This document shows, piece by piece, positions 2,801 through 49,547 of a stretch of DNA of 64,000 nt. Numbering within the stretch: the first letter of the stretch is position 1; each line of letters opens with the position of its first letter. Source of the DNA: Rickettsiales bacterium. GTDB taxonomy: Bacteria > Pseudomonadota > Alphaproteobacteria > Rickettsiales > SXRF01. The translations under genes and the position numbers were made by a program. The stretch spans positions 180 to 64,179 of the forward strand of contig SXRF01000068.1 of NCBI GenBank assembly GCA_005792635.1. The letters are read 5' to 3'. The notes beneath the pieces are model-generated. The model searched no databases, was not told where the DNA came from, and saw only the letters and a list, made by a program, of their open reading frames with translations.

Positions 2801-2945
2801 TGCTAGTGGCTAGTGATTAGTGGCTAGTGATTAGTTGGGTAAAACTTTAAATTATAAGGAGGAGTGGAAAAACGGTTTGGTGAATTTGCTGGTGGTGATG
2901 AATGTTTCTTCACTGACCACTGACCACTGACCACTGACCACTAAA
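2801..2945. repeat. Heptad-periodic inverted-repeat element in the rplB-rpsS spacer
   Basis: The left arm at 2803-2837 reads CTAGTGG CTAGTGA TTAGTGG CTAGTGA TTAGTTG. The right arm at 2911-2945 reads CACTGAC x4 then CACTAAA. The arms are partly complementary through an AGTG/CACT core, and the element begins directly at the rplB stop. Confidence 0.85.
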
Positions 2946-2949
2946 ATCT

Positions 2950-3228
2950 ATGGCTAGATCAGTTTGGAAAGGCCCGTTTGTTGATGGCTATCTGCTTAAA
3001 AAAGCAGAAGTTGCAAAGGCTGCGGCACGAAATCAGGTTATTAAGACTTGGTCGCGTCGTTCAACTATACTTCCGCAATTTGTGGGCTTGACATTTGGCG
3101 TTTATAACGGCAAGAAGTTCATCCCTGTTTCTGTGAATGAAGATATGATCGGGCATAAATTCGGTGAATTTGCGCCAACTCGCACTTTCCACGGTCATAG
3201 TGCAGACAAAAAAGCTGTTAAAAAATAA
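2950..3228 (+). CDS. rpsS: 30S ribosomal protein S19
   Basis: 92-aa ORF with [12 protein letters not shown]...[13 protein letters not shown]. Confidence 0.97.
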
Positions 3229-3237
3229 GGACATAGT

Positions 3238-3618
3238 ATGAGTAAGAAATCAGCAGAACGGGCATTAGCCCCAACGGAAGCAAAGGCGGTTATCAAGCGT
3301 TTGCGCGTTAGTCCGCAAAAACTTAATTTGGTGGCGGGTTTAATTCGCGGCATGTCTGTTGGCGCGGCACTAAATCAGCTTTCATTTTCCAGCAAGCGCA
3401 TTGCAGTTGATGTTAAAAAAGCGTTGCAATCAGCGGTTGCTAATGCTGAAAACAACCATAACCTGAATGTAGATTCTCTTTATGTTAAAGAGGCTTTTGT
3501 TGGTAAGAATTTAGTTATGAAACGCATGCATACCCGTGGTCGTGGTAAGTCGGCTCGTGTATTTAGACCATTCGCAAATTTGACGCTGATTGTGCGTGAG
3601 AAAGAGGAGAAAGCATAA
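3238..3618 (+). CDS. rplV: 50S ribosomal protein L22
   Basis: 126-aa ORF with [16 protein letters not shown], in the expected operon order. Confidence 0.95.
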
Positions 3619-7334: not shown

Positions 7335-7871
7335 ATGTCTCGTGTAGGTAAAAAGCCAGTTGCAATACCATCAGGCGTTACTGTTTCAGTAAAGTCCGGT
7401 GAAATTGCTGTAAAAGGTGGCAAGGGTGAGCTGAAGGCTAAACTAGCACCAGAAGTTACGGTTGCAGTTGAGGGTAGCAATGTTATTGTGCTTCCTATTA
7501 ACAAGGAAGATGCTCGCTCGCGTGCAATGTGGGGAACGACTCGCAACCAAGTGAACAATATGGTTGAAGGTGTGTCAAAGGGCTTTACTGTTCGTCTTGA
7601 AATTCAAGGCGTTGGTTTCCGTGCCGCTGCTGATAAGCAATATTTGACATTGGCTCTTGGGTTTAGCCATGAAATTAAATTTGCTATTCCAGAAGGAATC
7701 AGTATTGTCTGTGAAAAGCCAACCTCTGTTGCGATTTCTGGCTTTGATAAAAAATTGGTTGGTCAAGTTGCCGCTGAAATTCGCGGACTGCGTAAGCCTG
7801 AACCTTATAAAGGTAAGGGGGTTCGCTATGAAGGCGAATTTGTTCGCAAAAAAGAAGGGAAGAAAAAATAA
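7335..7871 (+). CDS. rplF: 50S ribosomal protein L6
   Basis: The canonical start MSRVGKKPV is the ATG at 7335, preceded by AAGGA. The ORF-track start at 7314 is an upstream extension. Confidence 0.95.
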   Translation: MSRVGKKPVAIPSGVTVSVKSGEIAVKGGKGELKAKLAPEVTVAVEGSNVIVLPINKEDARSRAMWGTTRNQVNNMVEGVSKGFTVRLEIQGVGFRAAADKQYLTLALGFSHEIKFAIPEGISIVCEKPTSVAISGFDKKLVGQVAAEIRGLRKPEPYKGKGVRYEGEFVRKKEGKKK

Positions 7872-8390: not shown

Positions 8391-8957
8391 ATGGCTCGTC
8401 CAGAACGCAATGAAAAGAAAACCACTCAAGAAGGCAGCGATTTGATTGACAAGTTGGTGTCCATTAACCGTGTTGCCAAAGTGGTAAAGGGTGGTCGCCG
8501 TTTTGGTTTTGCTGCACTGGTTGTGGTGGGCGATGGCAAAGGTCGTGTTGGTTATGGTGCTGGTAAAGCGAAAGAGGTTTCTGACGCAATGCGTAAGGCT
8601 CTAGATTCGGCAAAAAAATCAATGATTCGCTTCCCGCTTCGTGAAGGTCGGACTGTGCATCATGATTTATATGGTCACTTTGGCGCGGGTAAAGTTATCA
8701 TCCGCACTGCGCCTGTTGGTACTGGTATCATCGCTGGTGGGCCGATGCGTGCAGTATTTGAAGCTCTTGGTGTGCAAGATGTGGTGGCTAAATCGGTTGG
8801 GACTTCTAACCCACACAACATGCTTAAAGCAACTTTTGATGCACTTGAAGGCATGAAATCTCCACGAGCTATTGCTGCGAAACGCGGTAAAGTTGTTGGT
8901 GAGATTGTGGATCGTCGTGAGGGAAAAACTTCATCAGCAAAAACTGCTGAAGCTTAA
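8391..8957 (+). CDS. rpsE: 30S ribosomal protein S5
   Basis: ATG at 8391 after GAGGAATAAAAAG. Contains [16 protein letters not shown]. The ORF-track start at 8376 is a TTG extension. Confidence 0.94.
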
Positions 8958-13905: not shown

Positions 13906-13906
13906 G

Positions 13907-13991
13907 GAGTGGCGAGTGCTAAGTAATAAGTGGTAAGATTTTCTTACTAACTTATCACTCATCACTCACCACTTACCACTAACAACTAAGG
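13907..13991. repeat. Heptad-periodic inverted-repeat element in the rpoA-rplQ spacer
   Basis: Left arm GAGTGGC GAGTGCT AAGTAAT AAGTGGT AAG, loop ATTTTC, right arm ACTTATC ACTCATC ACTCACC ACTTACC ACTAACA ACTAAGG. It starts 1 nt after the rpoA stop, and its last unit runs into the rplQ SD AAGGAGA. Confidence 0.85.
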
Positions 13992-17634: not shown

Positions 17635-17874
17635 AAAATTTCTCCATAATTTATATTTTTGTTATCGCTCCACGCTGACATTCAACAATGGAATCATTAA
17701 CAATCTTACCACCCCCCCCCGTTAATTAAAGCTTAATAAAAATTGAATTATTGGTTAATTTTTATGTAAATTCTCAGAAACAAATAAAAATTTGCAGTTT
17801 TTGCGCTTGCTAAAGGCGTAATAAATCGTTTAACTACATCGACATACTAACCACTAACCACGAGACACCAAAAA

Positions 17875-19482: not shown

Positions 19483-19565
19483 CTGGTATTTTGGTGATGC
19501 GTACTCGGTACTCGGGAATCCTTAATTTTTACCGAGTACCAATAACCGAGTACAGAGTACCCAAA
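19483..19565. repeat. Heptad-periodic inverted-repeat element downstream of pccB
   Basis: Left arm CTGGTAT TTTGGTG ATGCGTA CTCGGTA CTCGGGA, right arm ACCGAGT ACCAATA ACCGAGT ACAGAGT. GTACTCGG and CCGAGTAC pair perfectly. The element begins 1 nt after the pccB stop. Confidence 0.85.
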
Positions 19566-19669
19566 AAAGCAATCTTCACACAATTGTCATATAACTTTCA
19601 AAAATATTGTGTTATGGTGTTTTTGTGTGTAATATGGTGCAGAGCTTTTATCTGTAAGGGGTTGTTTTT

Positions 19670-21190
19670 GTGACAGTTTATCGTAACAATAATCAGGATG
19701 AAAAGTCTATCTTTGCGTCAGTCGATTTTGACGACGCGAGCAACACCGCATTTTTCTTTGTAAAACATGAAGTTGATGTTGAACATGCCAAGGAATCGCT
19801 AGCGGCGGCGGGGCAGACAATAGTCGCTCAGAGCTATGTCAAAGGTCATACGGTTATTATTGCCCACGGCTCAATCCCTAAGGAAGAGTTATTCAGCAAA
19901 ATTTCCACGGCACAGGGCGATAAATTCGAGCCAGTTCCTGAGGAAAAGAAAACATTCTTGCCGTGGATAAAAGAAAATGGTTGGAAATTACGCGGTGGGT
20001 CTAGCGTTGTCGGGCAGTCGATGACGCTATATTCAGCGTTTAACACGGTTTCTGCTAAAGATGCTGCTGCTGGTAAATTAAGCCCAAAATTCGATCCCGC
20101 AACTGGCGTGTTCGCGATTTTGAACCTAACGGCTAATTTTATCAATTATATTTTTGGTGGTCAGAAAGAGGAAGATGTTAAAGGTCTAGAAAAATTTGAT
20201 GTCATCATTGCGGATGAGATAAATCGTTATTTACCAGAAAATGAGAGAAAAATCTCGCCGGATGATGTTCGCAAACTTTCTTACATGAATGATAAGGAAT
20301 TAGGAGAGCATAATAAAGACCGAAGCCCGACTGGTATTTTGAAAAGAAATTCTGTACGGCTTGGTGAGGTTGGTTTGCGGACACTTGGTTCATTGGCTTT
20401 GGTATTTAATTATCGTAAAGTAGGTGCAGGTTTTAAGGAGCTAATGAAAGGTAATGTAAAAGAAGCATTTCTGACTGCTAAAACCGAGGATAAATTCACT
20501 TTTACCGCTGGTCTTGGTATGGTGGCAGGTAAGATAATGGGGCTTACCGCGCAAACACAAGATCCAAACAACCCTCCAACCACCTATTGGGGGGAAATTC
20601 GCCAAAAAGTTCTGTGGATAACCAGTTCATTTACGGAGATGATCGCTCAGAGTTCTTTTGTGTATGACAGGGCGAAGAACAAAAAATTGATAGTTAATGG
20701 GCAGCCGCATAGTGACATGGTTGGTGCTATTGGTAACGCTATTCTTACCGTTCCACCATATCCAACTCGTTTAGTATTGCCGTATGGTAAGAAAGAACTA
20801 GACATTGACGAGGTGCAGGCGCGGTTGCTTGATGAGCTGCATAAATTGCCGCCAGATAAAATCCCTGAAGTGGCGGCGCGGGTGACGGCGCGGATGGTGG
20901 AGCATATGGGGGAATCATCACCAAGTTTCAGCGAGCTATACCGCAAATTGCTCGGGAAATTGGATAAATATCATAATATTAGCATTCTGCCGTGCGCTGA
21001 CAAATTGGGCGAGAAATCGGACAGCCAAGAACAAAGCTGGGCTGGAAATCTAGCCGCGAAATTGGCGAGCAGCGAGGCAATTCCTGATGAACCTGCTACC
21101 AAAAAATTCTCGGATAAAGCTCCGCGCAATAAAATTGAAAAAATGCCATTCATCCGCGAGGCGGATATATCTGGCGTCAGCTTGGCTTAG
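19670..21190 (+). CDS. Hypothetical protein, 506 aa
   Basis: Long ORF with a GTG start. No recognisable motifs and several weakly hydrophobic segments. Confidence 0.6.
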   Translation: MTVYRNNNQDEKSIFASVDFDDASNTAFFFVKHEVDVEHAKESLAAAGQTIVAQSYVKGHTVIIAHGSIPKEELFSKISTAQGDKFEPVPEEKKTFLPWIKENGWKLRGGSSVVGQSMTLYSAFNTVSAKDAAAGKLSPKFDPATGVFAILNLTANFINYIFGGQKEEDVKGLEKFDVIIADEINRYLPENERKISPDDVRKLSYMNDKELGEHNKDRSPTGILKRNSVRLGEVGLRTLGSLALVFNYRKVGAGFKELMKGNVKEAFLTAKTEDKFTFTAGLGMVAGKIMGLTAQTQDPNNPPTTYWGEIRQKVLWITSSFTEMIAQSSFVYDRAKNKKLIVNGQPHSDMVGAIGNAILTVPPYPTRLVLPYGKKELDIDEVQARLLDELHKLPPDKIPEVAARVTARMVEHMGESSPSFSELYRKLLGKLDKYHNISILPCADKLGEKSDSQEQSWAGNLAAKLASSEAIPDEPATKKFSDKAPRNKIEKMPFIREADISGVSLA

Positions 21191-21192: not shown

Positions 21193-22212
21193 TTATCTCA
21201 CCTGCGTTACTTGAAATAATTTGCGGCTGCTGGCGGGGATTGATGGCAGGTCTGAGCTTTTGCAAGCGAGTTCCGCCGAAACTATAATTTTCAAAGCTTT
21301 AACGATATTCTCCGCGCTCCAGCTATTCGCGTGGCGGGTGAGGATTGGAGCTTGTTTGAAAAACACAGGCGGGCGGAGTCCCGCAATCACCATTTCCGCG
21401 CTTTGCCCGCTTGCCGTCATTTTTGCGCGGATTTCATAGAGTCGGCTAAAATAGCGTTGCAGCGAGCGAAGGTAAAGGATTGGCTGCACGCCCTCGCGGA
21501 TATTTTGGCTTAAATGTTTTTCCAAATTTGCCAGATTTTTATCCGCAACGGCATTTAGTAAGTCGTTTAACTTAGTGTCTTGGTTGTAGCCAACCAGCGT
21601 TTGCGCGGCGGCAAGGCTGATGATTTTTTCCTCGCCAGCATAGAGTGTTATTTTGTCAAGTTCTTGATAAGTAACATATCTATCGCTACCAAGTTGCGTA
21701 ACTAAATATTCCACCACCTCGCGCTCGGCGCGAATTCCTGCCTCACTGAATTTTTGGCTGATGAGCGATTGTATATCGCGGATTTCATCGCGGTAACAGG
21801 CGATGGCGGCAAAGTCTGGGCTTTTTTCGCAAAATACCCGCAAAGCTGATTTACTCTCCAATTCGCCCGCTGTTAGTATCACAAAACTGTCTTTGTTAAA
21901 AAAGGCGGCGGCAGATTCAATTATTTTGCTGATTTTACTACCTGCATCACGAATGATAATAACGCGCTTGGGCGACATCATGCTGAAAGCCGAGAGTTCA
22001 TCGGCAAGCTTGGTCGGGTCGGCGAGGATTTCCGCCTCGCTGAATTCAATTTTGGCGAAGCTGTCACCAGCCGCCGCACCCAAAAAGGATTTTACAATTT
22101 TTCCCGCCCGTTCGCGCACTACGCCGCCATCTGCACCAAAAATCAGCGCGGCGCGGTGATCGCGGGCGGGTGCGCTCAAAAAACCATCAATTAATTTGGG
22201 GGCGATTTTCAT
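21193..22212 (-). CDS. holA: DNA polymerase III subunit delta
   Basis: 339-aa ORF in the conserved leuS-lptE-holA arrangement, with an N-terminal LIFGADGGVVRE-type clamp-loader delta signature. Confidence 0.85.
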   Translation of the reverse strand: MKIAPKLIDGFLSAPARDHRAALIFGADGGVVRERAGKIVKSFLGAAAGDSFAKIEFSEAEILADPTKLADELSAFSMMSPKRVIIIRDAGSKISKIIESAAAFFNKDSFVILTAGELESKSALRVFCEKSPDFAAIACYRDEIRDIQSLISQKFSEAGIRAEREVVEYLVTQLGSDRYVTYQELDKITLYAGEEKIISLAAAQTLVGYNQDTKLNDLLNAVADKNLANLEKHLSQNIREGVQPILYLRSLQRYFSRLYEIRAKMTASGQSAEMVIAGLRPPVFFKQAPILTRHANSWSAENIVKALKIIVSAELACKSSDLPSIPASSRKLFQVTQVR

Positions 22213-22855
22213 TTGGCGTTATTTGAATAGGCATGATGGTCGGTTGTATGGCAACTGGCTCGGTTGGTTTGGTTTTTTCGGTAATCGCGCTCAAGCGTTG
22301 CAAATATCGCTCGGCAAGCTCAGCTGTACCGCGCTTCCTTGCGTCTTGCTCGGAAATATAGGTGGAAAAATATTGATTGCTCGGGTTGTTATAGCTGGTG
22401 ACGCTGCTGATTGCGCCGTTATCAATCAATTTTCCGTCGCTAATCCGCGTTAATTTATAGCCAGAATTTATGGTAAGGTTATAGCGCGATGCCGTTCCGT
22501 CCCGCGAAATGCCGATGCCTGTATTGGTTTGCGAGAGCGAAACTTCTAGGCGGTATAAAGGTGCAGTGGTTTTGGTGGAAGGAACGAGCAAATCCTCCAG
22601 ATTTTGTGAGAATTGGCGGGATATTCTATTTGCGGAATTATTGCTGGTGTCGGAACTGGAGGCAAGAACGCTGGTGGTTGAGCCACTGTCGCTTGCGACG
22701 ATGACTACCCCAGCCAGAACAGGAGAATTGGCAGGCAGCGCAGATTTTGTGCCATATACAGGCTGAAAGCCGCAGGAGGAAAAGCAGATTAGGAGTGTGG
22801 AGTATAGAGTGTAGAGTGTAAGAATCCTTATAGGAAAAAACGACTTTTTCCACAC
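22187..22855 (-). CDS. lptE: LPS-assembly lipoprotein LptE
   Basis: Located between leuS and holA. Lipobox ...LLICFSSC followed by GFQPVYG. The maximal ORF starts at the ATG at 22897 inside leuS. A GTG at 22855, with GGAG 6 nt upstream, gives a normal signal peptide (M)WKKSFFPIRILTLYTLYSTLLICFSSC. The start remains ambiguous. Confidence 0.75.
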   Translation of the reverse strand: MWKKSFFPIRILTLYTLYSTLLICFSSCGFQPVYGTKSALPANSPVLAGVVIVASDSGSTTSVLASSSDTSNNSANRISRQFSQNLEDLLVPSTKTTAPLYRLEVSLSQTNTGIGISRDGTASRYNLTINSGYKLTRISDGKLIDNGAISSVTSYNNPSNQYFSTYISEQDARKRGTAELAERYLQRLSAITEKTKPTEPVAIQPTIMPIQITPNENRPQIN

Positions 22856-22878
22856 TCCGCACTCCACACTCCACACTC
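22792..22878. repeat. Heptad-periodic inverted-repeat element spanning the lptE 5' end and the leuS 3' flank
   Basis: Left arm GGAGTGT GGAGTAT AGAGTGT AGAGTGT (22792-22819), an inner mini-hairpin GGAAAAA-ACGAC-TTTTTCC (22833-22851), and right arm CACACTC CGCACTC CACACTC CACACTC (22851-22878). Confidence 0.9.
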
Positions 22879-22880
22879 TT

Positions 22881-25445
22881 CTACGCAACCACGACATTCA
22901 CAATCCTATTCGCTACGACGATTATTTTTTTAATTTCTTTATCTTTTATAGACTCCGCAACATTCGGCAGGGCAAGGGCGGTTTTTTCCAAAATCGCTTT
23001 ATCTTCGTCTTTTTTTGCTTCAAACGCACCGCGCAATTTTCCATTTACTTGTACCGCGATATTCACCGAATCATCAATTAAAAACGCAGCATCGGCAATC
23101 GGAAACGGGCGGTTTGCCAGCTCGTCTTTATTACCCAGTTGCGCCCATAATTCTTCGGCGAGATGCGGCATAAACGGATTTATCAGATGAATTGCGGCAA
23201 TTATTGCCTCATTCCTTGCCGCTGAATTTTCCGCTGTAGGTTTGGTATCCTCAATTAGATTAGTCAGCTCACGAATTCGCGCAATGGCTTTGTTGAAATG
23301 GAATTTTTCCAGATCGTCAGTGACTGCGGCGATGGTTTTGTGGGTCTGGCGAATTAGGGCTTCGGGCTTTGGGCTTTGGGCTTCGGAAGAAATACTTGAA
23401 GCCTGAAGCCTAGAGCCTGAAGCCTCTTGAACTAACCGCCACAGCCGACCGATATACCGCCATGCACCTTCAATCCCTGCATCTGTCCATTCCAGATCGC
23501 GGTCGGGCGGGCTGTCGGAAAGCATGAACAACCGCGCCGCATCCACACCATAAGTCGCGATAATATGGCGCGGGTCAATGGTGTTTTTCTTGGACTTACT
23601 CATTTTCTCAATGCGCCCGACAGTAACAGGTTTGCCAGTTTTTATTTCTACAACCCCTAATCCAGAATTGCTAACCCCTATCTCATCAGGCGACAACCAT
23701 TTGCCTTCCGCGTTTTTATAGGTTTCGTGGGAAATCATCCCCTGCGTTTCAAGGCGTTTGAAGGGTTCTTGCAAATTCAGCAAGCCACATTTGGCGAGGG
23801 CGCGGGTGAAAAAGCGCGAATATAACAAATGCAAAACCGCGTGTTCAATGCCGCCGATATAGCAATCAACGCCGCCAGCCAGCCAATAGTTTAGCGCGGA
23901 TTTTTCCAGCGGGTCTGCGCTTGGCGTGGTTGCGTAACGCAAATAATACCATGACGACTCAAAAAATGTGTCAAATGTATCCGTTTCGCGGGTGGCTGGT
24001 TTTTCGCATTTCGGGCAGTTCACATGCTTCCATGTCGGATGATTGGCCAGCGGATTACCCGCTTTTTCAAAGCTCACATCTTTGGGTAACTCAACAGGAA
24101 GCTGCGCCTCTGGTACAGGCACTGCACCGCACGAAGCGCAATGGATAATCGGAATCGGGCAACCCCAGTAGCGTTGGCGCGAAATGCCCCAATCGCGCAG
24201 ACGATAATTGGTTTTGCCTGAGCCAATTCCGAGTTTTTCTAGCTCGGCGATGGCGCGTTTTTTTGCCTCGTCGACTGACAAGCCATTGAGAAAATCCGAG
24301 TTTATAAGTGCGTCATCATCGCCAACCACTTGCAAAATCGGCAGGTTATATTTAACTGCGAATTCGTGGTCGCGCTCGTCATGCGCTGGGCAACCAAAAA
24401 TCGCGCCAGTGCCATAATCCATCAACACGAAATTGGCGATATATAGTGGCACTTCGCGGTTTTCAAACGGATGTTTGATTTTTAATCCAGTATCAAACCC
24501 TTTTTTCTCGGCTTTTTCTATCGCTTCTTCGGATGTTCCAAGCTTATTACATTCAGCGATGAAAGCAGCGGCTTCTGGGTTATGTGCGGCTATATCTTTG
24601 GCAAGGGGATGACCAGTAGAAATCGCGCAGAAACTCATGCCGAAAAATGTATCAGGTCTTGTCGTATATATGTCTATGCTGCTCTCTATTACAGGCTTGT
24701 CAGGTTTGGCGCAAAGAACTTTGAGCGTGACAACAGCTCCCTGCGATTTTCCAATCCATTTTTCCTGCATTAGGCGGACTTTTTCTGGCCATTCTTTTAA
24801 GCCGTCTAGCCCTGCGAGTAAATCCTCGGCGAAATCAGAAATCCGCAAAAACCACTGCGATAATTTGCGGCGTTCCACCAGCGCACCGCTGCGCCAGCCG
24901 CGCCCGTCAATTACTTGCTCATTGGCAAGCACCGTGTTGTCCACAGGATCCCAGTTGACTTCCGCCTCTTTGCGATATGCTAAGCCATTTTCCAGAAATT
25001 TTAGGAAAAATTTTTGCTCGTGCTTGTAATAATCAGGAAGGCAAGTTGCCAGCTCACGCGACCAATCATAAGACAGTCCTATGAGTTTTAGTTGCTCGCG
25101 CATGGTTTCAATATTCGCCAGCGTCCATGTTTCTGGGTGCGAATTATTTTGAATCGCTGCGTTTTCCGCGGGCAAGCCGAACGCGTCCCAACCCATGGGG
25201 TGCAGGACATTAAACCCCTGCGCTCGCTTGCTTCGTGCCACTACATCGCCGAGCGTGTAATTTCGCACATGCCCCATGTGGATATTTCCAGACGGGTAGG
25301 GGAACATTTCCAGCACGAAGTATTTCGGCTTCTCGCTGTTAATGCTGGCGGCGAAGCTGTTGTTTTTTGCCCAGCGCTGTTGCCACTTGGCTTCAGTTTC
25401 GCGGAAGTTGTAGCGGGTGTTTTCTGTGGTTTTTGGTTCGGTCAT
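22881..25445 (-). CDS. leuS: Leucine--tRNA ligase
   Basis: 854-aa ORF with the HMGH motif (PYPSGNIHMGHVRNY), KMSKS and the CP1 editing domain. Confidence 0.97.
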   Translation of the reverse strand: MTEPKTTENTRYNFRETEAKWQQRWAKNNSFAASINSEKPKYFVLEMFPYPSGNIHMGHVRNYTLGDVVARSKRAQGFNVLHPMGWDAFGLPAENAAIQNNSHPETWTLANIETMREQLKLIGLSYDWSRELATCLPDYYKHEQKFFLKFLENGLAYRKEAEVNWDPVDNTVLANEQVIDGRGWRSGALVERRKLSQWFLRISDFAEDLLAGLDGLKEWPEKVRLMQEKWIGKSQGAVVTLKVLCAKPDKPVIESSIDIYTTRPDTFFGMSFCAISTGHPLAKDIAAHNPEAAAFIAECNKLGTSEEAIEKAEKKGFDTGLKIKHPFENREVPLYIANFVLMDYGTGAIFGCPAHDERDHEFAVKYNLPILQVVGDDDALINSDFLNGLSVDEAKKRAIAELEKLGIGSGKTNYRLRDWGISRQRYWGCPIPIIHCASCGAVPVPEAQLPVELPKDVSFEKAGNPLANHPTWKHVNCPKCEKPATRETDTFDTFFESSWYYLRYATTPSADPLEKSALNYWLAGGVDCYIGGIEHAVLHLLYSRFFTRALAKCGLLNLQEPFKRLETQGMISHETYKNAEGKWLSPDEIGVSNSGLGVVEIKTGKPVTVGRIEKMSKSKKNTIDPRHIIATYGVDAARLFMLSDSPPDRDLEWTDAGIEGAWRYIGRLWRLVQEASGSRLQASSISSEAQSPKPEALIRQTHKTIAAVTDDLEKFHFNKAIARIRELTNLIEDTKPTAENSAARNEAIIAAIHLINPFMPHLAEELWAQLGNKDELANRPFPIADAAFLIDDSVNIAVQVNGKLRGAFEAKKDEDKAILEKTALALPNVAESIKDKEIKKIIVVANRIVNVVVA
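23358..23425. repeat. Heptad-periodic inverted repeat inside the leuS coding sequence
   Basis: GGGCTTC GGGCTTT GGGCTTT GGGCTTC, loop, GAAGCCT GAAGCCT AGAGCCT GAAGCCT. On the minus strand it is translated as ...EASGSRLQASSISSEAQSPKPEA.... Confidence 0.9.
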
Positions 25446-26309: not shown

Positions 26310-26325
26310 CTAACCTAAGTTAGGA

Positions 26326-27738: not shown

Positions 27739-28416
27739 ATGTTGAATATAAAAGATAAATTGCAAAAAATTGCGGATGATATAGAAAAGGCGAGGGGGGC
27801 TTCGCCCATTGCTGCGCCAGCCGTTACTATACTTGCTGCCAGTAAATCGCAGTCCGCCCTATATATAGAAGAGGCGATTGCGGCGGGCATCACCGATTTT
27901 GGCGAAAACCGCGTGCAAGAAGCGGCGGAAAAGTGGGGGCAGGGCGGCTTGCGGGAAAAATATCCGCATATAAAACTACATCTAATAGGGGCATTGCAAA
28001 CTAATAAAGTGAAGCAGGCACTAGCACTTTTTGATGTTATTCAGAGTGTGGATAGCCCAAAGTTAGCAGAGGCTTTGAGTAAGCACTACACTTCACACTC
28101 CACACTCCGCACTCGTTCTTTCTATATCCAAATCAACACTGGCGAAGAGCCGCAGAAATCAGGGATTTTTCCCGCGCAGGCGGATGAATTCATAAAATAT
28201 TGTGTGGACGAGTTGCAATTGCCAGTTGTTGGGCTGATGTGTGTCCCGCCCGCTGATCAGCCGCCCGCGCCGCATTTTGCTTTGCTGCGTGAAATCGCCA
28301 AGCGGAATAATCTGCGCGAGCTTAGCATGGGCATGAGCGGCGATTACGAAGTGGCGGTGCGGATGGGCGCGAGCTGCGTTCGTGTTGGGACGGCGTTGTT
28401 TGGTGAGCGCGCATAG
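27739..28416 (+). CDS. yggS: PLP-homeostasis protein YggS (COG0325)
   Basis: MLNIKDKLQKIADDIEKA... LAASKSQS ... GENRVQE ... HLIGALQTNKVK ... ELSMGMSGDYEVAVRMGASCVRVGTALFG. The ORF-track start at 27640 is an upstream extension. Confidence 0.88.
   Translation: MLNIKDKLQKIADDIEKARGASPIAAPAVTILAASKSQSALYIEEAIAAGITDFGENRVQEAAEKWGQGGLREKYPHIKLHLIGALQTNKVKQALALFDVIQSVDSPKLAEALSKHYTSHSTLRTRSFYIQINTGEEPQKSGIFPAQADEFIKYCVDELQLPVVGLMCVPPADQPPAPHFALLREIAKRNNLRELSMGMSGDYEVAVRMGASCVRVGTALFGERA
28084..28114. repeat. CACACTC-type heptad array inside the yggS coding sequence
   Basis: ...CACACTC CACACTC CGCACTC, sharing the 14-nt string CACACTCCGCACTC with 22851-22864. It is translated as KHYTSHSTLRTR. Confidence 0.8.
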
Positions 28417-30123: not shown

Positions 30124-30447
30124 ATGACGGCAAATAATACGGCAAAAAACATAGCTTTGCCAGAGCTGCTGAGCAGTGATGCTTTTGAGCAATTCCACGC
30201 GCTGCTCGCTGAGGAAATTTCTTCCACTGATGATATAGAATTTGATGCTTCTGGTGTTTCGCGCCTTACCACGCCTTGCGCTCAGCTTTTGGCATCGTTC
30301 TTGCAAACAAGAAATTTGCAGGTGGGAAATTCACAGGTGGGAAATTCACAAGTTGGAAAAGCACAAAAAACAGAAATAAAAAATGCCTCTGATGCGTTTC
30401 GTTCGGCGTGGAGCGATCTTGGGCTTGGAGCGCAGTTTGCCTTATAA
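30124..30447 (+). CDS. STAS-domain protein, CheS-like (first gene of the che operon)
   Basis: 107-aa ORF containing IEFDASGVSRLTTPCAQLL. Its position upstream of cheY-cheA matches cheS of Sinorhizobium meliloti. It contains an internal QVGNS repeat. Confidence 0.6.
   Translation: MTANNTAKNIALPELLSSDAFEQFHALLAEEISSTDDIEFDASGVSRLTTPCAQLLASFLQTRNLQVGNSQVGNSQVGKAQKTEIKNASDAFRSAWSDLGLGAQFAL
30319..30363 (+). repeat. 15-bp tandem repeat x3 inside the CheS-like gene
   Basis: CAGGTGGGAAATTCA CAGGTGGGAAATTCA CAAGTTGGAAAAGCA, encoding QVGNS QVGNS QVGKA. Confidence 0.95.
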
Positions 30448-36476: not shown

Positions 36477-36592
36477 TAGTGATGTTTGAGGACTAGAGGA
36501 TTAGAGAAATAGAGAATTCAATTCTTTTGTTTTTCTAGTCCTCTAATCCTCTAGTTTTCTAGTTCTCCAATCATCTAATAATCCAATTATCC
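36474..36592. repeat. Heptad-periodic inverted-repeat element in the mcp-cheR spacer
   Basis: TAGTAGT GATGTTT GAGGACT AGAGGAT TAGAGAA ATAGAGA ... TAGTCCT CTAATCC TCTAGTT TTCTAGT. The segment 36492-36506 (ACTAGAGGATTAGAG) is perfectly complementary to 36541-36555. Confidence 0.9.
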
Positions 36593-36594
36593 AT

Positions 36595-37437: not shown

Positions 37438-38109
37438 ATGAACCAAGAAGAAACGCAAAAATTTAACCGCCGTAGCACCGATCGCCTGACAGCAAAGAAA
37501 CCAGACGGAACAACGATTGTTGAGCGCAGGAGCAGCGAGCGCGAAAACTTGGCAAAAGTTACCACGCTTTATTCTGGCGATTATTATGTAACTGATAAGC
37601 CAAACGAGATGATTGTTACCATCCTCGGCAGTTGCGTGGCGGCTTGTTTGCATGACCCTGTGGCAAGGGTTGGCGGAATGAATCATTTTTTGCTGCCTGA
37701 CAACACGGCTGGTGGTTCGGTTAGTAATGGCTCTAGCTCTGCGGAATCCACGCGTTACGGCGCGTTTGCTATGGAGCAGTTAATCAACGGAATTTTACAG
37801 CGCGGCGGGCTAAAAAGCCGCATTGAAGCTAAAGTATTTGGTGGTGCAAATGTTATCAATAATTCGGCGATGATTGGCAGCAAAAATGTTTCTTTTATCA
37901 GAAATTTTTTGAAGCAAGAGGGGTTAAAGGTAACCAGCAGTGATTTAGGGGGAGATTATCCTCGGCGGCTGCGTTTTTATCCTGATACGGGCAAAGCAAT
38001 GCTGATGAAACTGGCGAGAAAAGATGATATGATGGTGGTGGATGAGGAAAAACAATTTGCTGAAAAACTTAAAGTTAAACCAGTTGAGGGTGATATTGAG
38101 TTGTTTTAG
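37438..38109 (+). CDS. cheD: Chemoreceptor glutamine deamidase CheD
   Basis: 223 aa with ILGSCVAACLHDP...GGMNHFLLP and KVFGGANV, preceded by an N-terminal extension of about 45 aa. Confidence 0.88.
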   Translation: MNQEETQKFNRRSTDRLTAKKPDGTTIVERRSSERENLAKVTTLYSGDYYVTDKPNEMIVTILGSCVAACLHDPVARVGGMNHFLLPDNTAGGSVSNGSSSAESTRYGAFAMEQLINGILQRGGLKSRIEAKVFGGANVINNSAMIGSKNVSFIRNFLKQEGLKVTSSDLGGDYPRRLRFYPDTGKAMLMKLARKDDMMVVDEEKQFAEKLKVKPVEGDIELF

Positions 38110-38144
38110 TGGCTAGTGACAAGTGGTGAATGATAAGGAAAAAG

Positions 38145-41866: not shown

Positions 41867-42181
41867 TTATATCATTCCTTTATTAAATGCGTCACGCAGT
41901 AATTTTTCAACTTTTACATTATAGCCCTTGCCGACAGATTTAATTAAATCCACTAAATCAGGGGAAAAACGAAAGGCGATCATTTTTTTTGGTGCGATGG
42001 AGGCTGGGCGACCGCGATTTTTATTTTGGATAGCGGATAGTTTTTTTTGCAAGGAAAGCGGCAAACCAGAAAACGGCACGGCATTTTTGAAAAATTCATC
42101 GGTAAGCTCTGGAACATCGTCATCATCAAGCAGTACACGCGTACCATCTTCATATTCAATGTATTCTTGTTTTTTTTTCAT
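41867..42181 (-). CDS. brnA: BrnA-type antitoxin (COG3514-like, RHH)
   Basis: 104 aa with GRPASIAPKKMIAFRFSPDLVDLIKSVGKGYNVKVEKLLRDAF. It overlaps and lies downstream of the BrnT gene. Confidence 0.75.
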   Translation of the reverse strand: MKKKQEYIEYEDGTRVLLDDDDVPELTDEFFKNAVPFSGLPLSLQKKLSAIQNKNRGRPASIAPKKMIAFRFSPDLVDLIKSVGKGYNVKVEKLLRDAFNKGMI

Positions 42182-42434
42182 AATCTTTCCTTTCTCGCAA
42201 ATTTGCTTTTCTGAGGCTTATCGCTCGCACTCCATTTTGTGTTTCCACAAAACATAAAATATGCAGTCTTTCATAGATATAACCAGTTGAAACGCAACGA
42301 ACCTCGCCATAATCCTTTCGAGAGTCGATTGCGATTTTGGCAGTCGCATAATCAAACAACCCCGCATCAGCAAGTGATATGCCGTGCTTGTTTATATTCT
42401 TCTCATTCTTAACTGGATCGAATTCTATATCCAT
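42156..42434 (-). CDS. brnT: BrnT-type toxin (DUF497 ribonuclease toxin)
   Basis: 92 aa with MDIEFDPVKNEKNINKHGISLADA...YGEVR...RAISLRKANLRERKDY, the typical DUF497 pattern. It overlaps brnA by 26 nt. Confidence 0.8.
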   Translation of the reverse strand: MDIEFDPVKNEKNINKHGISLADAGLFDYATAKIAIDSRKDYGEVRCVSTGYIYERLHILCFVETQNGVRAISLRKANLRERKDYEKKTRIH

Positions 42435-43740: not shown

Positions 43741-43874
43741 GTTTTTACCTTGAGGCTAGCGGATAGAGGAGATTGACAAAGAATATTCTTTTATAGTCAG
43801 CGTTTTTGCAAGCGGTTTTTCTTTACAAAACATTCTTAATCCTTTAATCATCCAGTCATCCAAAATGGCAATAA

Positions 43875-44939
<1,065 letters not shown>

Positions 44940-46210: not shown

Positions 46211-46222
46211 GAAAGAAAAAAT

Positions 46223-47350
46223 ATGACTAATAAAGCTGTAATTTGCGGATATGCTCGTTCACCATTCACACCTGCGGGTAAGGGGGAGCTGGCTCGCACT
46301 CGCCCTGACGATATTTTGGCGCAAGTTCTGAAAGGCTTGCTGACGAAAATTTCGCTGAATACGGCGGATATTGAGGATGTTATGGTTGGTTGCGCCTTCC
46401 CCGAGGGCGAGCAGGGCATGAATATTGGGCGGCAATTGGTGTTGCTGTCTGGTTTGCCAATCAGCATTGGCGGCGCGACGGTTAATCGTTTTTGCGGTTC
46501 GTCAATGGAGGCGATTCACATTGCGGCGGGGAAAATCACTTGCGGTGCTGGTGAATTATTTATCGCTGGCGGAGTGGAGTCTATGAGCCGCATACCGATG
46601 GGCGGTTTTAATCTTGCACCGAATCCTGCGCTATATTCTGCCATGCCTGCTGCTTATATGTCTATGGGGCTGACGGCGGAGCAGGTATGCAAAAAACTTT
46701 CTATAGCTCGCGCCGAGCAAGAAAAATTCGCGCTAGCCAGCCATCAAAAAGCCGCAAAAGCTGATTTTTCAGGTGAGATTATTCCTATTGTAAGCAAAGC
46801 AGGAACGGTTAGCAAAGACGGTTGCATTCGCCCTGAAACCAGCCTTGAAAGCATGGCGGGATTAAAACCTGCCTTTGATGTAAGCGGCACGGTGACGGCG
46901 GCGACTTCTTCACCAGTAACCGATGGTGCAGCGGTGGTGATTGTCGCATCAGAGGCGTATGCCAAGAAAAATAATCTGCCGATTTTAGCGCGGATAAAAT
47001 CTTTTGCGACATCGGGAATTGCGCCAGAAATTATGGGGCTAGGGCCAGTGGAAGCCAGCAAAAAGGCAATTTCTCGCGCTGGTCTAACGCTTTCCGATAT
47101 TGATATTATTGAGCTAAACGAAGCTTTCGCAGTGCAAGCCCTTGGCGTTATTGCTGAGCTTGGGCTGGACGCAAGCAAAATAAATCTCGACGGTGGCGCG
47201 CTCGCCCTTGGTCATCCGCTAGGTGCATCGGGCGCAAGGATAACTGGTAAAGCCGCGCAGTTGCTAGCAAAACACGGGAAGAAATACGCCCTAGCCACTC
47301 AGTGCATCGGCGGCGGGCAGGGCATAGCCACGATTCTTGAAGCTGTTTAA
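46223..47350 (+). CDS. Acetyl-CoA C-acyltransferase (thiolase)
   Basis: 375 aa with the catalytic contexts NRFCGSSMEA, GHPLGASGAR and CIGGGQG. Confidence 0.9.
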   Translation: MTNKAVICGYARSPFTPAGKGELARTRPDDILAQVLKGLLTKISLNTADIEDVMVGCAFPEGEQGMNIGRQLVLLSGLPISIGGATVNRFCGSSMEAIHIAAGKITCGAGELFIAGGVESMSRIPMGGFNLAPNPALYSAMPAAYMSMGLTAEQVCKKLSIARAEQEKFALASHQKAAKADFSGEIIPIVSKAGTVSKDGCIRPETSLESMAGLKPAFDVSGTVTAATSSPVTDGAAVVIVASEAYAKKNNLPILARIKSFATSGIAPEIMGLGPVEASKKAISRAGLTLSDIDIIELNEAFAVQALGVIAELGLDASKINLDGGALALGHPLGASGARITGKAAQLLAKHGKKYALATQCIGGGQGIATILEAV

Positions 47351-47351
47351 C

Positions 47352-49547
47352 TTACGCCATAAACTCTGGCAGCCAGCTTTCATTAGTAGCTTTTAGTTGT
47401 TCAACTGATATTTTGTCGTCGCCAATAGTCAGTTGACTGACTTGCGTTTTCCCGATTAGGTAGGCTGGCACATTTATCGCTTTTGCCGCCGCTAGAATAT
47501 CCGCGCTGTTTCTTGCAGTGATTATATAGCGAGCTTGATCTTCACCGAACCAGAACCCAGCATCACCAATCGCTGTAATATCCGCGCCAATCCCATTTCT
47601 ATAAGTCATTTCGGCGATGGCAACTAGCAGCCCACCGTCGGAAATATCATGACAAGCGGTGATTTTTCCGCCCTCAATCATTGAGCGCACAAAATCGCCA
47701 TTGGCTTTTTCCGCCTGCAAATCAACTGTTGGTGGTAAGCCTTCTTCGCGTCCCAAAATCTCGCGCAGATATAACGAAGCTCCCAGATGTTCTTTGGTTT
47801 CACCAATCAGGATAATATCCTCACCAGCCGCCAGAAAACTATTACCCACGCGCTTGTTCACATCGCGCAAAATGCCAACACCGCCGATGGCTGGGGTGGG
47901 TTGAATGGCTGTGCCGCTGGTTTCGTTATATAGCGACACATTGCCCGAAATAATCGGGTAATTGAGTGCGCGGCAAGCCTCGCCCATACCCTGCAATGCG
48001 CCAACGATTTGCCCCATTATTTCGGGTTTTTCTGGGTTGCCGAAATTCAGGCAGTTGGTGATGGCAAGCGGCGTTGCGCCCACGGCGGTTAAATTCCGCC
48101 AAGTTTCGGCAACTGCTTGCTTTCCGCCCTCCACAGGGTCGGCGTAGCAATAGCGCGGTGTGCAGTCGGTGGTTATTGCCAATGCCTTATTCGTGCCATG
48201 CACGCGCACCACCGCAGCATCCCCACCACTTCGTGCCACAGTGTCATTGCCAACTTGGCTGTCATATTGTTCGTATATCCAGCGTTTGGAGCTTAAATCT
48301 GGAGACTTGAGCAGAGTGTGGAGTGTAGAGTGTAGAGTGTGGTGAGCAGGTAATTCAACACTCGTAACGAAGCACTCTACACTCCTCTTAATTTCATACG
48401 GTCGGTCGTAAATCGGAGCATCCGTTGAAACTGGCGCGATTGGCATATCAGCGACTACTTCGCCGTGCATTTTCAGCACGATATGCCCAGTATCGGTGAT
48501 TTTACCGATGGTGGCGAATGACAACTCCCATTTCTCAAACACAGCGCGGGCGATATGTTCTTTTTCTGGCTTAATCACCATCAGCATGCGCTCCTGCGAT
48601 TCTGAAAGCATGATTTCGTAAGGTGTCATGCCCACTTCGCGCATCGGCACTTTGTCCAAATCCATCTCAATTCCCGTGCCGCCTTTACCCGCCATTTCAA
48701 GGGATGAGGAGGTTAAGCCCGCCGCGCCCATGTCCTGAATGGCAAGGATGGTGTCAGTTTGCATGAGTTCAAGGCAAGCTTCAATGAGTAATTTTTCCGT
48801 AAAAGGATCTCCAACCTGCACAGTCGGGCGTTTTTCTTCGGAGTTTTCGCCGAATTCCGCTGAAGCCATCGTCGCGCCGTGGATGCCGTCGCGCCCTGTT
48901 TTGCTGCCGACATACACCACGCTGTTGCCAACGCCCGCCGCCGCCGAATAGAAGATTTTGTCTTGGTCAGCGATGCCAACGGTCATAGCATTGACGAGGA
49001 TATTGCCGTTATATGACGAGTGAAAATTGCACTCGCCGCCAACAGTGGGAACACCAACGCAGTTGCCATAGCCGCCGATGCCCGCCACCACGCCAGAAAG
49101 CAAATGTTTGGTTTTGGGGTGCGAAGGGTCGCCAAAGCGCAGCGCGTTCATATTCGCAATCGGACGCGCGCCCATGGTGAACACATCGTGCAGAATTCCG
49201 CCAACACCTGTGGCAGCACCCTGATATGGCTCAATGTAAGATGGGTGGTTGTGCGATTCCATTTTGAAAATCGCCGCTTGCCCGTCGCCAATGTCTATCA
49301 CGCCCGCGTTTTCCCCCGGCCCGCAGATGACCCAAGGTGCGCTGGTTGGCAAGTCGCGTAAGTGTTTGCGCGTGGTTTTATAAGAGCAATGCTCGCTCCA
49401 CATAACCGAGAAAATCCCCAGCTCCACCATGTTCGGCTCACGCCCCATGATTTTCAGCACGCGGGCATATTCATCAGGCGATAAGCCATGTTCAGCCACG
49501 ATTTGCGGGGTTATTTTTGATTCTATTCTTTGTGCAGCTTGGTTCAT
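47352..49547 (-). CDS. purL: Phosphoribosylformylglycinamidine synthase subunit PurL
   Basis: [21 protein letters not shown] and DCLNFGNPE-like motifs. The ATG at 49547 ([22 protein letters not shown]) is preferred over the TTG at 49598 used by the ORF track. Confidence 0.95.
48314..48386. repeat. GAGTGT-type heptad inverted repeat inside the purL coding sequence
   Basis: GAGTGTG GAGTGTA GAGTGTA GAGTGTG (48314-48341), a loop, then CACTCTA CACTCCT (48373-48386). On the minus strand it is translated as ...[17 protein letters not shown].... Confidence 0.88.

Follow-up and report, generated by a model that had tools for sequence, protein, structure and literature searches.

Hairpin-forming heptanucleotide arrays at cistron junctions and within genes of an uncultured alphaproteobacterium

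Introduction

What kind of element builds long hairpins from tandem heptanucleotides, places them both in operon spacers and inside essential genes, and uses a different repeat unit from one site to the next? The question is raised by a 64,000-nucleotide stretch of DNA, referred to below as the window, from an uncultured alphaproteobacterium. The MAG records of its clade are labelled Rickettsiales, and alphaproteobacterial MAGs are the closest SecY and LeuRS relatives of the host. An initial annotation had described a hairpin family at ten or more places in this window and had not recognised its architecture as one described before.

Results

Period-7 arrays are enriched in the window

The number of tandem arrays was determined by our own scan with 50 dinucleotide shuffles as the control. 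Ten period-7 arrays were found in the 64-kb window against 0.52 per shuffle, and a stricter score gave seven against none in the shuffles. Periods 4-6 and 8-11 were not enriched in the window in the same shuffle-controlled scan. The absence of any excess over shuffled sequence, which the initial annotation had named as fatal to the family, was thus refuted, for period 7 only. In LeuRS-related loci, 38 period-7 arrays were present; no other period exceeded 8, and shuffles gave 0-1. Tandem Repeats Finder reported period 7 at 2798-2835, 2911-2942, 13950-13980, 17846-17861, 19501-19515, 22793-22820, 22849-22878, 23357-23386, 23397-23425, 28088-28114 and 48313-48340. The HIP1 octamer occurred once in the 64 kb.

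Hairpins were identified with an inverted-repeat finder and RNAfold at 2801-2949, 13906-13975, 19483-19570, 22792-22878, 23354-23428, 36477-36579 and 48314-48386, with dG values from -28 to -54 kcal/mol and z scores from -2.9 to -7.9. All seven loci that had been listed as examples were therefore genuine. The ten sites of the window are seven hairpins and three single arrays (17846-17861, 28088-28114 and 38107-38127), fewer hairpins than the ten or more first counted. About half of all arrays had a complementary partner above the null.

The arrays E3 and E9 are short, as chance low-complexity sequence might be, but shuffles gave only 0-1 arrays and the same architecture recurred in dozens of metagenomic contigs of independent origin. 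Overlapping contig stretches from ENA, NCBI GCA_005779685.1 and the Logan assembly were 99.99-100% identical, three sources that may rest on overlapping read sets, and all contigs of the host organism were identical over their overlaps. Together, the shuffles and the independent metagenomic contigs for all practical purposes rule out chance or an assembly artefact.

The elements and their surroundings

The elements are listed below; units on the minus-strand elements are given as indicated.

2798..2838, plus strand: E1 5' arm, TAGTGC TAGTGGC TAGTGAT TAGTGGC TAGTGAT TAGTTGG; rplB stops at the first TAG
2911..2945, plus strand: E1 3' arm, CACTGAC x4 + CACTAAA; 4 nt from the arm end to the rpsS ATG (2950)
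13906..13941, plus strand: E2 5' arm, GAGTGGC GAGTGCT AAGTAAT AAGTGGT AAG..., 1 nt past the rpoA stop
13950..13991, plus strand: E2 3' arm, ACTTATC ACTCATC ACTCACC ACTTACC ACTAACA ACTAA
17846..17861, plus strand: E3, single C-rich array (ACTAACC ACTAACC AC), with 13 nt between it and the carboxyltransferase start that follows (17875)
19483..19566, plus strand: E4 hairpin, 1 nt past the carboxyltransferase stop; arms of 2-3 heptads each (GTACTCG x2-3 / CCGAGTA-type) and a 15-nt loop
22792..22878, minus strand: E5 hairpin at the leuS-lptE junction; in the sense direction GAGTGTG x4, loop, ACACTCT/ACACTCC x4
23354..23428, minus strand: E6 hairpin within leuS; on the plus strand GGGCTTY x4 / GAAGCCT x4
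28088..28114, plus strand: E7, single C-rich array in a YggS-family gene, ACACTTC ACACTCC ACACTCC GCACTC
36477..36579, plus strand: E8 hairpin in the spacer between an MCP gene and cheR; period-8 units TAGAGGAT / ATCCTCTA
38107..38127, plus strand: E9, single array in the cheD-cheB spacer, TAGTGGC TAGTGAC AAGTGGT; cheD stops at the first TAG
48314..48386, minus strand: E10 hairpin within purL; on the plus strand GAGTGTG GAGTGTA GAGTGTA GAGTGTG, with a degenerate partner at 48358-48386

Between rplB and rpsS, E1 occupies a spacer of 149 nt; the other listed loci from alphaproteobacteria have 1-34 nt there. Its 5' arm presents stops in all three frames, and the rpsS start behind it has no Shine-Dalgarno site. 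Both arms are 100% perfect by Tandem Repeats Finder, one as (CACTGAC)4.6 and the opposing one as a 14-mer repeated 2.3 times. The Shine-Dalgarno site and ATG (14001) of rplQ come after the 3' arm of E2, and a G-poor leader runs from E8 to the cheR ATG (36595). Partner arms were not found for E3, E7 or E9. The heptad unit assigned to every locus held generally, the exception being the period 8 of E8.

E5 begins 2 nt past the leuS stop. It had been taken as purely intergenic, but the lptE start is likely to lie inside its 5' arm, at the GTG at 22855, and its 3' arm codes for TLYTLYSTLL, the signal-peptide core. The loops of E4 and E5 have GAATCCTTA in common. As proposed, the architecture is kept while units differ between loci, and the subfamilies are real: GAGTGTR had 13 matches at three window loci against 0.48 expected, and NAGTGGY was present at 4-5 loci within the 64 kb.

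Polarity, pairing and stop codons

G outnumbered C in the left arm 35 times out of 38 (p=7e-8), the C-rich arm lying 3', and this G-rich-first polarity was common to coding and non-coding copies. Adjacent arrays were convergent in 13 cases, divergent in one and direct in two. Because a G-rich array lies 5' and a C-rich array 3', a pair can fold into an interrupted hairpin of 25-35 bp on either DNA strand and in mRNA. Such a hairpin is identical on both strands, with the G-rich arm first, which leaves it no choice of orientation. That copies within genes take the orientation free of stops can consequently be argued only for the single array at 28088 and for no hairpin. Arm mismatches on the sense strand comprised 24 G·U and 31 A·C, that is, no G·U bias; sense and antisense folds were about equally stable, and both intragenic copies were more stable as antisense.

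Every copy was located between co-directional genes or within genes. The 5' arm began -2 to +12 nt from a stop codon in about 20 of 26 cases, in agreement with the placement at or beside the upstream stop first reported. Stops in all three frames were frequent in the 5' arm, not universal as had been supposed (three of five window hairpins, 8/19 overall). Start codons numbered 48 in 5' arms and 6 in 3' arms.

Copies within genes

Alignments with LeuRS, PurL and YggS structures and with relatives showed E6, E7 and E10 to lie in variable linkers and to add 0-12 residues. E6 encodes EASGSRLQASSISSEAQSPKPEA in a variable linker ahead of the LeuRS anticodon-binding domain, E10 falls in a variable linker of PurL, and the segment with E7 is variable and 2 residues longer than in PDB 3r79. 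In L084, L094, L096, L101 and L166, the arms enclose the conserved TTRPDT coding segment. Since the arms flank conserved coding sequence in relatives and so few residues are added, the intragenic copies are not simple insertions, and the comparison with in-frame insertion of Rickettsia palindromic elements (RPEs) was not upheld.

Relatives

The same architecture was found in many relatives, each with its own favoured heptamer. GAGTGTR, present at three loci in the window, was absent from all 163 fetched loci, and within each of L124, L102, L088 and L166 the arrays largely had a core in common. L167, the negative control, was without any heptad array, and GCA_041396965.1 is a heptad-free relative. 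Different units occupied the same sites in different lineages at leuS|lptE, rpoA|rplQ and two LeuRS linkers, and among the nearest relatives presence or absence differed at most sites. Occupancy of the rpoA|rplQ junction extended to independent lineages, and non-heptad hairpins stood there in many other alphaproteobacteria. L166 had a hairpin in the same LeuRS linker as E6, and most LptE homologues at 50-60% identity had translated hairpin extensions.

Sequence conservation at orthologous sites, proposed earlier as a sign of ordinary conserved sequence, gave a divided result. Position and architecture often recurred without sequence, but the E5 junction hairpin was conserved in sequence too in the relative L165, where the 3' arm was about 93% identical against a background of 70%. 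L162, from a distant organism, had two copies of 152 nt in unrelated flanks; both had heptad arms around a conserved 87-nt core with compensatory changes.

Comparison with known repeat classes

Heptanucleotide repeats of cyanobacteria, the STRRs, were reportedly described by Mazel in 1990 and Elhai in 2008, and their choice as a precedent was sound. The window arrays resemble them in the tandem 7-nt units, the few genome-specific units dispersed over many loci (judged here in 64 kb), the mostly intergenic location and the patchy phylogeny, and the CAGT/AGT core of many units also occurs in STRR CCCCAGT and CAACAGT. They differ in that most arrays are hairpin-paired and essential-gene coding sequence is also overlaid; the host is alphaproteobacterial, which excludes STRRs in the strict sense, for which a cyanobacterial host is required.

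The REP/BIME sequences of enterobacteria and pseudomonads are extragenic hairpins between co-transcribed genes near stop codons that stabilise upstream mRNA. REPs are conserved palindromes of 20-40 nt in many near-identical copies, tagged GTAG/CGTC and accompanied by a RAYT transposase, and are not known to occur in coding sequence. Liang et al. are said to have found in 2015 that REPs within about 15 nt of a stop affect translation. REP/BIME provides the best functional analogy, but REPs lack heptad periodicity, and the window copies have no palindrome in common, their arms being periodic arrays with differing units. No RAYT (TnpA-REP) was present among the window ORFs scanned against Pfam. 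CRISPR arrays have direct 24-40 nt repeats interspersed with unique spacers of comparable length. The units in the window are 7 nt long, contiguous and paired in inverted orientation, which excludes a CRISPR array; here, as for REP, the initial annotation was right. RPEs, at about 150 bp, form ten conserved families, each with a conserved peptide that adds a protein segment (PMC10969869). Like the window copies, they are alphaproteobacterial palindromic repeats translated in frame within housekeeping genes; the window copies are set apart by heptad periodicity, little or no net insertion and no element sequence or peptide conserved between copies.

No window element matched Rfam at gathering score, the sole match being tRNA-Thr at 29308-29379. 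Intrinsic terminators, which have a GC-rich, short-looped stem ahead of a T-run, were not called on the sense strand at E1, E2, E5, E6 or E8. A real bidirectional terminator was called at 26276-26299.

Heptameric long SSRs (Mrazek, 2007) are considered here as summarised in PMC4679880 and PMC4692102. In Xanthomonas, GGGAATC arrays form 70-75 cases per genome of two convergent arrays on opposite strands, and their mean distance is 28 nt from the ORF upstream and 160 nt from the one downstream (Rehm et al., 2015; PMC4692102). They lie between co-directional genes, and their length and sequence vary among close relatives (PMC4692102). The architecture had therefore been described before. The window hairpins have the same G-rich-arm-first polarity and likewise form convergent pairs close behind the upstream ORF. 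The Xanthomonas arrays have one G-tract unit with G-quadruplex potential, whereas the window units are diverse (TAGTGGC, GAGTGTG, GTACTCG, TAGAGGAT) and have a G3 run only in E6 (GGGCTTY), so the G-quadruplex class was rejected; intragenic in-frame hairpins and arms around conserved coding sequence are present here and go unreported in PMC4692102.

The TAACTGA repeats of Beggiatoaceae, cyanobacteria and Bacteroidetes present stops in all three frames (MacGregor, 2015; PMC4679880). They occur at cistron junctions, including those of ribosomal-protein operons, just 5' of starts without a Shine-Dalgarno site, and reverse copies are translated within ORFs (PMC4679880), so that this combination was not new either. 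Units of relatives come close to them (L085 TAACTGG/TAACTGC, L102 TAACTAA, and L166 units containing TCAGTTA). The TAACTGA arrays are direct in 169 cases and inverted in one (PMC4679880), whereas inverted pairs dominate here and units are more varied. The window hairpins are thus of the kind represented by cyanobacterial STRRs, Xanthomonas GGGAATC arrays and Beggiatoaceae TAACTGA repeats. The findings added here are the polarity, the placement at stop codons, the reuse of sites with different units, the arms around conserved code, the small gain in length and the lack of G·U bias.

Discussion

The heptad arrays exist, are enriched, share polarity and placement, turn over and are distributed across the clade. 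We consider it slightly more probable than all other outcomes combined (about 0.55) that they are a genome-specific family of the STRR or long-SSR type, mostly in convergent pairs, grown by slippage and homogenised. The new findings point to a DNA-level, concertedly evolving repeat family, not to a cut-and-paste element or ordinary conserved RNA.

It is unlikely, if worth serious thought, that the hairpins are selected RNA elements whose stem-loops between cistrons keep operon mRNA stable or process it, attenuate read-through or link the translation of adjacent cistrons, the heptads being incidental. The same junctions keep the architecture across a deep clade, as at rpoA|rplQ and in the LptE extensions, arm complementarity is kept while units change, the stem begins at the stop codon and can end beside the following start, and no copy lies outside the setting of co-directional genes or gene interiors. 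Selection on RNA is not reflected in an excess of G·U mismatches or in a more stable sense fold, the hairpins are not terminator-like, occupancy varies among the closest relatives, and the same polarity and architecture recur within coding regions, where the hairpins cannot act between cistrons. Doubtful to a greater degree is a family of MITEs with heptamer arrays as terminal inverted repeats, mobilised in trans by a transposase encoded elsewhere. The L162 pair, the identical units at separate window loci, the lineage-specific gain of about 115-150 nt at E1 and the GAATCCTTA common to two loops would suit such elements. The window copies have inverted arms but share neither an internal core nor a target-site duplication, each arm shows signs of independent internal slippage, the leuS segment enclosed in several relatives cannot be inserted sequence, E6, E7 and E10 add too little, and no transposase was found in the 64 kb.

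The universal polarity itself would be predicted if a dedicated, telomerase- or retroelement-like enzyme wrote the arrays, extending both 3' ends at staggered nicks or gaps with a templated G/T-rich heptamer; repair would leave a G-rich arm, the original sequence and a C-rich arm. Arms of about equal length, loops of original sequence (conserved coding sequence included) and genome-specific units would follow, and the patchy phylum distribution of heptamer repeats (PMC4679880) and the convergent Xanthomonas arrays (PMC4692102) would fit. This purely inferential idea is highly improbable: no candidate was found in the window ORFs, a single genome has widely different units at its loci (GGGCTTC, TAGAGGAT, GTACTCG), and the copies within genes bring a smaller gain in length than two arms would.

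In the preferred reading, a DNA-level repeat would be seeded and then extended by replication slippage within each arm, where perfect 7- and 14-nt sub-repeats are present, and template switching or short-patch gene conversion would homogenise a favoured heptamer among arms and loci. Survival of copies would be limited to freely variable sequence: the first spacer bases past a stop within operons, 5' ends, signal peptides, and variable surface linkers of proteins. Against growth in situ, the L162 pair looks like transposition, and E1 is a gain in a spacer that is short elsewhere. Retention of the junction hairpin throughout a deep clade could be due to functional selection and not to neutral homogenisation, and period 7 and the G-rich-5' rule are left unexplained by slippage and by conversion.

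The hairpins probably function as intercistronic stem-loops. A stable stem-loop at cistron junctions would often put multi-frame stops behind the upstream gene and would leave a G-poor leader, almost free of start codons, before the next gene. Because it would draw the stop and the next start together, translational coupling may survive a spacer of 100-150 nt. The stem-loop may also protect or process the mRNA, as REPs do.

Heptad arrays and hairpins in the window

The tandem heptamers reported in the initial annotation were plain in the raw sequence, and Tandem Repeats Finder returned period-7 arrays at each locus named there. The period-7 arrays of the window numbered 10 in a period scan, where 50 dinucleotide-preserving shuffles gave 0.52; with a stricter score the figures were 7 and 0. 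Periods 4-6 and 8-11 were at background level; periods 14 and 15 were also above background (8 and 7 arrays), the excess at period 14 being the second harmonic of period 7. Overlapping stretches were 99.99-100% identical across contigs of three public sources, ENA, NCBI GCA_005779685.1 and a Logan assembly, so the arrays are no assembly artefact. Every contig recovered by exact look-ups of RpsS and RplQ was identical to the window, and thus no polymorphism was available for study; an exact look-up of RplB matched no record.

Paired arms had been claimed at ten or more places. Seven sites formed hairpins, with RNAfold energies of -28 to -54 kcal/mol and z-scores of -2.9 to -7.9, but the other three (E3, E7 and E9) were single arrays without a partner. 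The heptad period, claimed for every site, was 8 at E8 by Tandem Repeats Finder and 7 elsewhere.

Heptad-array sites E1-E10 in the window (hairpins from an inverted-repeat finder and RNAfold)
E1: 2801-2949, hairpin, rplB-rpsS junction
E2: 13906-13975, hairpin, rpoA-rplQ junction
E3: 17846, single array, 13 nt ahead of a start codon
E4: 19483-19570, hairpin, 3' of the carboxyltransferase gene
E5: 22792-22878, hairpin, leuS-lptE junction
E6: 23354-23428, hairpin, within leuS
E7: 28088, single array, within yggS
E8: 36477-36579, hairpin of period 8, MCP-cheR junction
E9: 38107, single array, cheD-cheB junction
E10: 48314-48386, hairpin, within purL

Genomic context of the elements

The window is ordinary chromosome. 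It carries the S10-spc-alpha ribosomal operon, crcB, the carboxyltransferase gene, holA-lptE-leuS, a porin gene and yggS, followed by a chemotaxis cluster (cheA, cheW, MCP, cheR, cheD, cheB), mreB, serS, purL, purH, folD and trpS. No transposase or reverse transcriptase was found among the window ORFs scanned against Pfam. The best SecY relatives were MAGs labelled Rickettsiales (73-75% identity), and the remaining matches were all Alphaproteobacteria. A cyanobacterial origin was ruled out by these relatives and by the single HIP1 site in the window.

Other features of the gene complement were recorded. A 506-aa ORF with a GTG start (19670-21190), downstream of the carboxyltransferase gene and E4, had no Pfam match, and neither had the 107-aa ORF that heads the chemotaxis cluster and contains a 15-nt in-frame tandem repeat, GAAATTCACAGGTGG, in about 3.3 copies (30311-30366). 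Between two aminotransferase-type genes (41867-42434), a small ORF lies upstream of a BrnA-type antitoxin gene and overlaps it; this arrangement may be a BrnT/BrnA toxin-antitoxin pair.

The hairpins were examined as intrinsic terminators and rejected. No T-run followed any of them, and the terminator scan called none on the sense strand, although it did call a genuine bidirectional intrinsic terminator at 26276-26299. That terminator lies in the DUF3576-porin stretch (26040-26330), which also has several strong hairpins at 26054-26134 and offers a contrast to the heptad hairpins. An Rfam search of the window matched tRNA only and none of the hairpins.

The upstream gene's stop codon doubles as the first TAG of the array in both E1 and E9. 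E5 is intergenic only in part: the lptE reading frame passes through it. The 5' arm holds a GTG preceded by GGAG, and the 3' arm codes for a hydrophobic signal-peptide core, TLYTLYSTLL, ahead of the lipobox Cys. Gene callers place the lptE start upstream of the hairpin (22187-22897; proteins P0001-P0044), so public LptE entries of this clade have spurious N-terminal extensions. These are translated heptad arrays, such as MSWLRRRVWSVECGVWKK, SSQRSEVRGQ...TIAYCLMPIAF and SSNQLSVVSGQ. They were present in most LptE homologues of only 50-60% identity and missing from two lineages. In practice, gene callers run lptE and similar genes through the hairpins and produce spurious N-terminal peptides.

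Gain and overlay of the arrays

At E1, sequence has clearly been gained: 149 nt separate rplB from rpsS in the window, against 1-34 nt in the other alphaproteobacterial loci listed, the two closest included. The distance from the leuS stop to the lipobox Cys was about 105 nt in hairpin-bearing genomes against 35-45 nt in hairpin-free relatives. Within genes, simple in-frame insertion in the manner of Rickettsia palindromic elements (RPEs) had been suggested, and alignments of E6, E7 and E10 ruled this out. E10 aligned without gaps to Thermus PurL, and E7 has 2 residues more than PDB 3r79. In the LeuRS linker that contains E6, Neisseria LeuRS has 2 residues more than the window protein and the nearest relatives have 6-12 fewer; longer versions also occur. 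RPEs are conserved elements of ~150 bp that add a peptide (PMC10969869), a definition that the window copies do not fit.

Loci were fetched from relatives and other genomes by protein search (L-numbers). Five of them (L084, L094, L096, L101 and L166) contain two complementary heptad arrays within leuS, about 90-100 nt apart, which flank the conserved segment IYTTRPDTxFGMSFCAI, so that the loop of the hairpin is conserved coding sequence. When four of these were folded, L084, L094 and L096 gave z-scores of -5.6 to -6.3, while the L101 fold was insignificant (z = 0.7). A cut-and-paste element cannot yield arms that flank a conserved coding segment. The arrays are superimposed on sequence that can vary freely and are not merely inserted into it.

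Recent inverted duplication would be expected to leave unit variants in mirror order between the arms. By eye, such order was absent in E1, E5 and L096, and only one copy in L162, a distant organism, had it. Slippage appears to have been independent in each arm; in E1, Tandem Repeats Finder gave a perfect (CACTGAC)4.6 in one arm and a perfect 14-mer x2.3 in the other.

Architecture of the hairpins

Of 38 hairpins, 35 had a G-rich 5' arm and a C-rich 3' arm (p=7e-8); the other three are CGCGCC-type low complexity in high-GC loci. Neighbouring arrays were convergent in 13 cases, divergent in 1 and direct in 2. Because a hairpin is the same on both strands, this polarity is a property of the element and not of its orientation, and since coding copies share it, selection on stop or start codons alone is insufficient as its cause. 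An AGT or CAGT core was common to most units by eye.

The statement that intergenic copies start at the upstream stop codon was borne out: about 20 of 26 intergenic hairpins had a 5' arm whose start was -2 to +12 nt away from where a co-directional upstream ORF stops. Three-frame stops, also claimed, were found in 8 of 19 5' arms. The 3' arms were nearly free of start codons (6, against 48 in 5' arms).

The mreB and cheR starts follow leaders (43830-43892 and 36560-36594, respectively) that are poor in G, rich in A, C and T and marked by AATCATC/AATCC motifs; these leaders have no Shine-Dalgarno site and resemble degenerate 3' arms. On the minus strand, a weak heptad array (TATGGTT TGTGGCT TATGGCT, 52921-52942) at the 5' end of surE codes for a low-complexity N-terminus.

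Distribution and turnover among relatives

A metagenome scan with LeuRS gave 80 loci (1.17 Mb). At the stricter score these contained 38 period-7 arrays, whereas no other period exceeded 8 arrays and shuffles gave 0-1. The period-7 arrays were concentrated in 16 loci, of which most belong to the closest relatives of the window. SecY loci, mostly rhizobial, contained 4 period-7 arrays in 1.48 Mb. Five SecY loci (L017, L037, L051, L059 and L079) had heptad hairpins in the rpoA-rplQ spacer, as in E2. The closest SecY relatives, L001 and L002 (73-75%), had no arrays, so ribosomal-operon spacer orthology is informative on presence or absence only. One of the two lineages without the LptE extension, L167 (GCA_041396965.1, a 2-Mb contig), had no period-7 array in 20.6 kb and serves as a natural negative control.

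The favoured unit differed by genome: GAGTGTR and NAGTGGY in the window, GCAACTC/TAGTTGC in L124, GAGTCGA in L102, AGTCKCC in L088 and CAGTNRT in L166. Three window loci together gave 13 matches to GAGTGTR, where 0.48 would be expected; the 163 fetched loci gave none. Arm cross-complementarity was 0.65-0.95 within one locus and lower, mostly 0.4-0.7, between lineages at the same junction, except in the close pair L094/L096. Position and architecture thus usually recur at orthologous sites, but sequence does not. The exception is L165 (LeuRS and HolA 78% identical to those of the window, DNA 70%), in which the leuS-lptE hairpin has the same unit as E5 and a 3' arm about 93% identical; the equally distant L084 has GAGTTTT/AAAACTC at this junction.

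In L166 (484-1602), the ATP synthase gene cluster is interrupted by a gene for a 23S-rRNA-IVP protein and by a HepT/MNT toxin-antitoxin pair, and in L165 (4465-5853) a lone terminase large-subunit gene lies beside glmS. Between a thioredoxin-reductase-like gene and folD, the window has a compound palindrome, GTCATTCCGCCGAAGGGCGGAATC...GGCATGGATACCAGCCTTCGCTGGTATGAC (54093-54179, dG about -54), and a very similar one, GTCATTCCC...GGGAATGAC, follows leuS in L096 (about 8560-8650). The two look like a second, non-heptad REP-like family.

Relation to known heptamer repeats

To our knowledge, heptameric repeats have been recognised in bacteria since 1990, with both origin and function unexplained. 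Cyanobacterial heptanucleotide repeats (STRRs) were reportedly described by Mazel in 1990 and Elhai in 2008. As summarised in PMC4679880 and PMC4692102, Mrazek (2007) found heptameric SSRs over-represented in many bacteria and proposed slippage tied to the polymerase footprint. Xanthomonas GGGAATC arrays form convergent pairs on opposite strands (70-75 cases per genome), mostly between co-directional genes, with mean distances of 28 nt to the ORF upstream and 160 nt to the one that follows (Rehm et al., PMC4692102); their polarity and placement are the same as in the hairpins of this clade. TAACTGA arrays carry stops in three frames and lie directly upstream of starts without Shine-Dalgarno sites, they also occur within operons for ribosomal proteins, and their reversed copies are translated (MacGregor, PMC4679880); near-identical units occur in L085, L102 and L166. 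The searchable open-access literature yielded no description of heptad hairpins in Alphaproteobacteria, and nothing on heptamers was found in literature on Ehrlichia ruminantium tandem repeats. Nor did the assembly and run accessions lead to a paper.

Origin and significance of the hairpins

The evidence best supports a family of heptamer repeats that evolves in concert at the DNA level, is laid down as convergent pairs and survives where sequence is unconstrained. Alternatively, the hairpins might be kept by selection for an RNA role. A G·U excess on the sense strand would signal such selection, but mismatches there were 24 G·U against 31 A·C. Sense and antisense folds were about equally stable, the energy comparison being inconsistent. 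The absent wobble bias and equal stability are unlike a selected RNA helix. Apparent MITE-type mobility was seen in L162 (GC 36%), where two 152-nt copies 4.7 kb apart (2709-2860 and 7462-7612) share heptad arms (AATKTTG) as terminal inverted repeats and an 87-nt core with compensatory changes, in unrelated flanks; in one genome or more, heptad-armed elements can thus act as MITEs do. Copies in the window have no shared core. Their sole overlap is a 9-mer, GAATCCTTA, in the loops of E4 (19515-19530) and E5 (22820-22835), whose arms differ (chance about 0.002, a rough estimate only).

A hypothetical dedicated enzyme that would write the arrays is the sole model that directly predicts the polarity. 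Such an enzyme, spread horizontally, would write convergent heptamer arrays at nicks or gaps by stop codons and in permissive coding sites, extending both 3' ends from one short template, and the same machinery would lie behind cyanobacterial STRRs, Xanthomonas GGGAATC pairs, Beggiatoaceae TAACTGA repeats and these alphaproteobacterial hairpins. If true, this would account for the universal polarity, in which the G-rich arm comes first, for the period of 7 and for units particular to each genome, but we consider the proposal improbable.

Under the family reading, the likely effect of a hairpin would be a strong stem-loop at the cistron junction, which may draw the stop and the next start together and leave a G-poor leader ahead of the next gene. 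By analogy, its functional counterpart would be REP elements near stop codons.

The heptad hairpins are real and of a kind already known but unexplained, and the alphaproteobacterial variant is new. Almost every array in this clade is one hairpin arm, so the clade gives an unusually clean view of heptameric repeats. Any mechanism is constrained by the strict G-rich-5' polarity, the start at the upstream stop, the genome-specific units, the repeated occupation of a junction by differing sequences, the capacity of arms to straddle conserved code and the lack of RNA-type wobble bias. The heptad-free GCA_041396965.1 beside heptad-rich relatives makes a phyletic search for the responsible gene possible, and the copies in the S10/spc/alpha ribosomal operons, leuS and purL are a measure of how much structured repetitive DNA essential genes tolerate.
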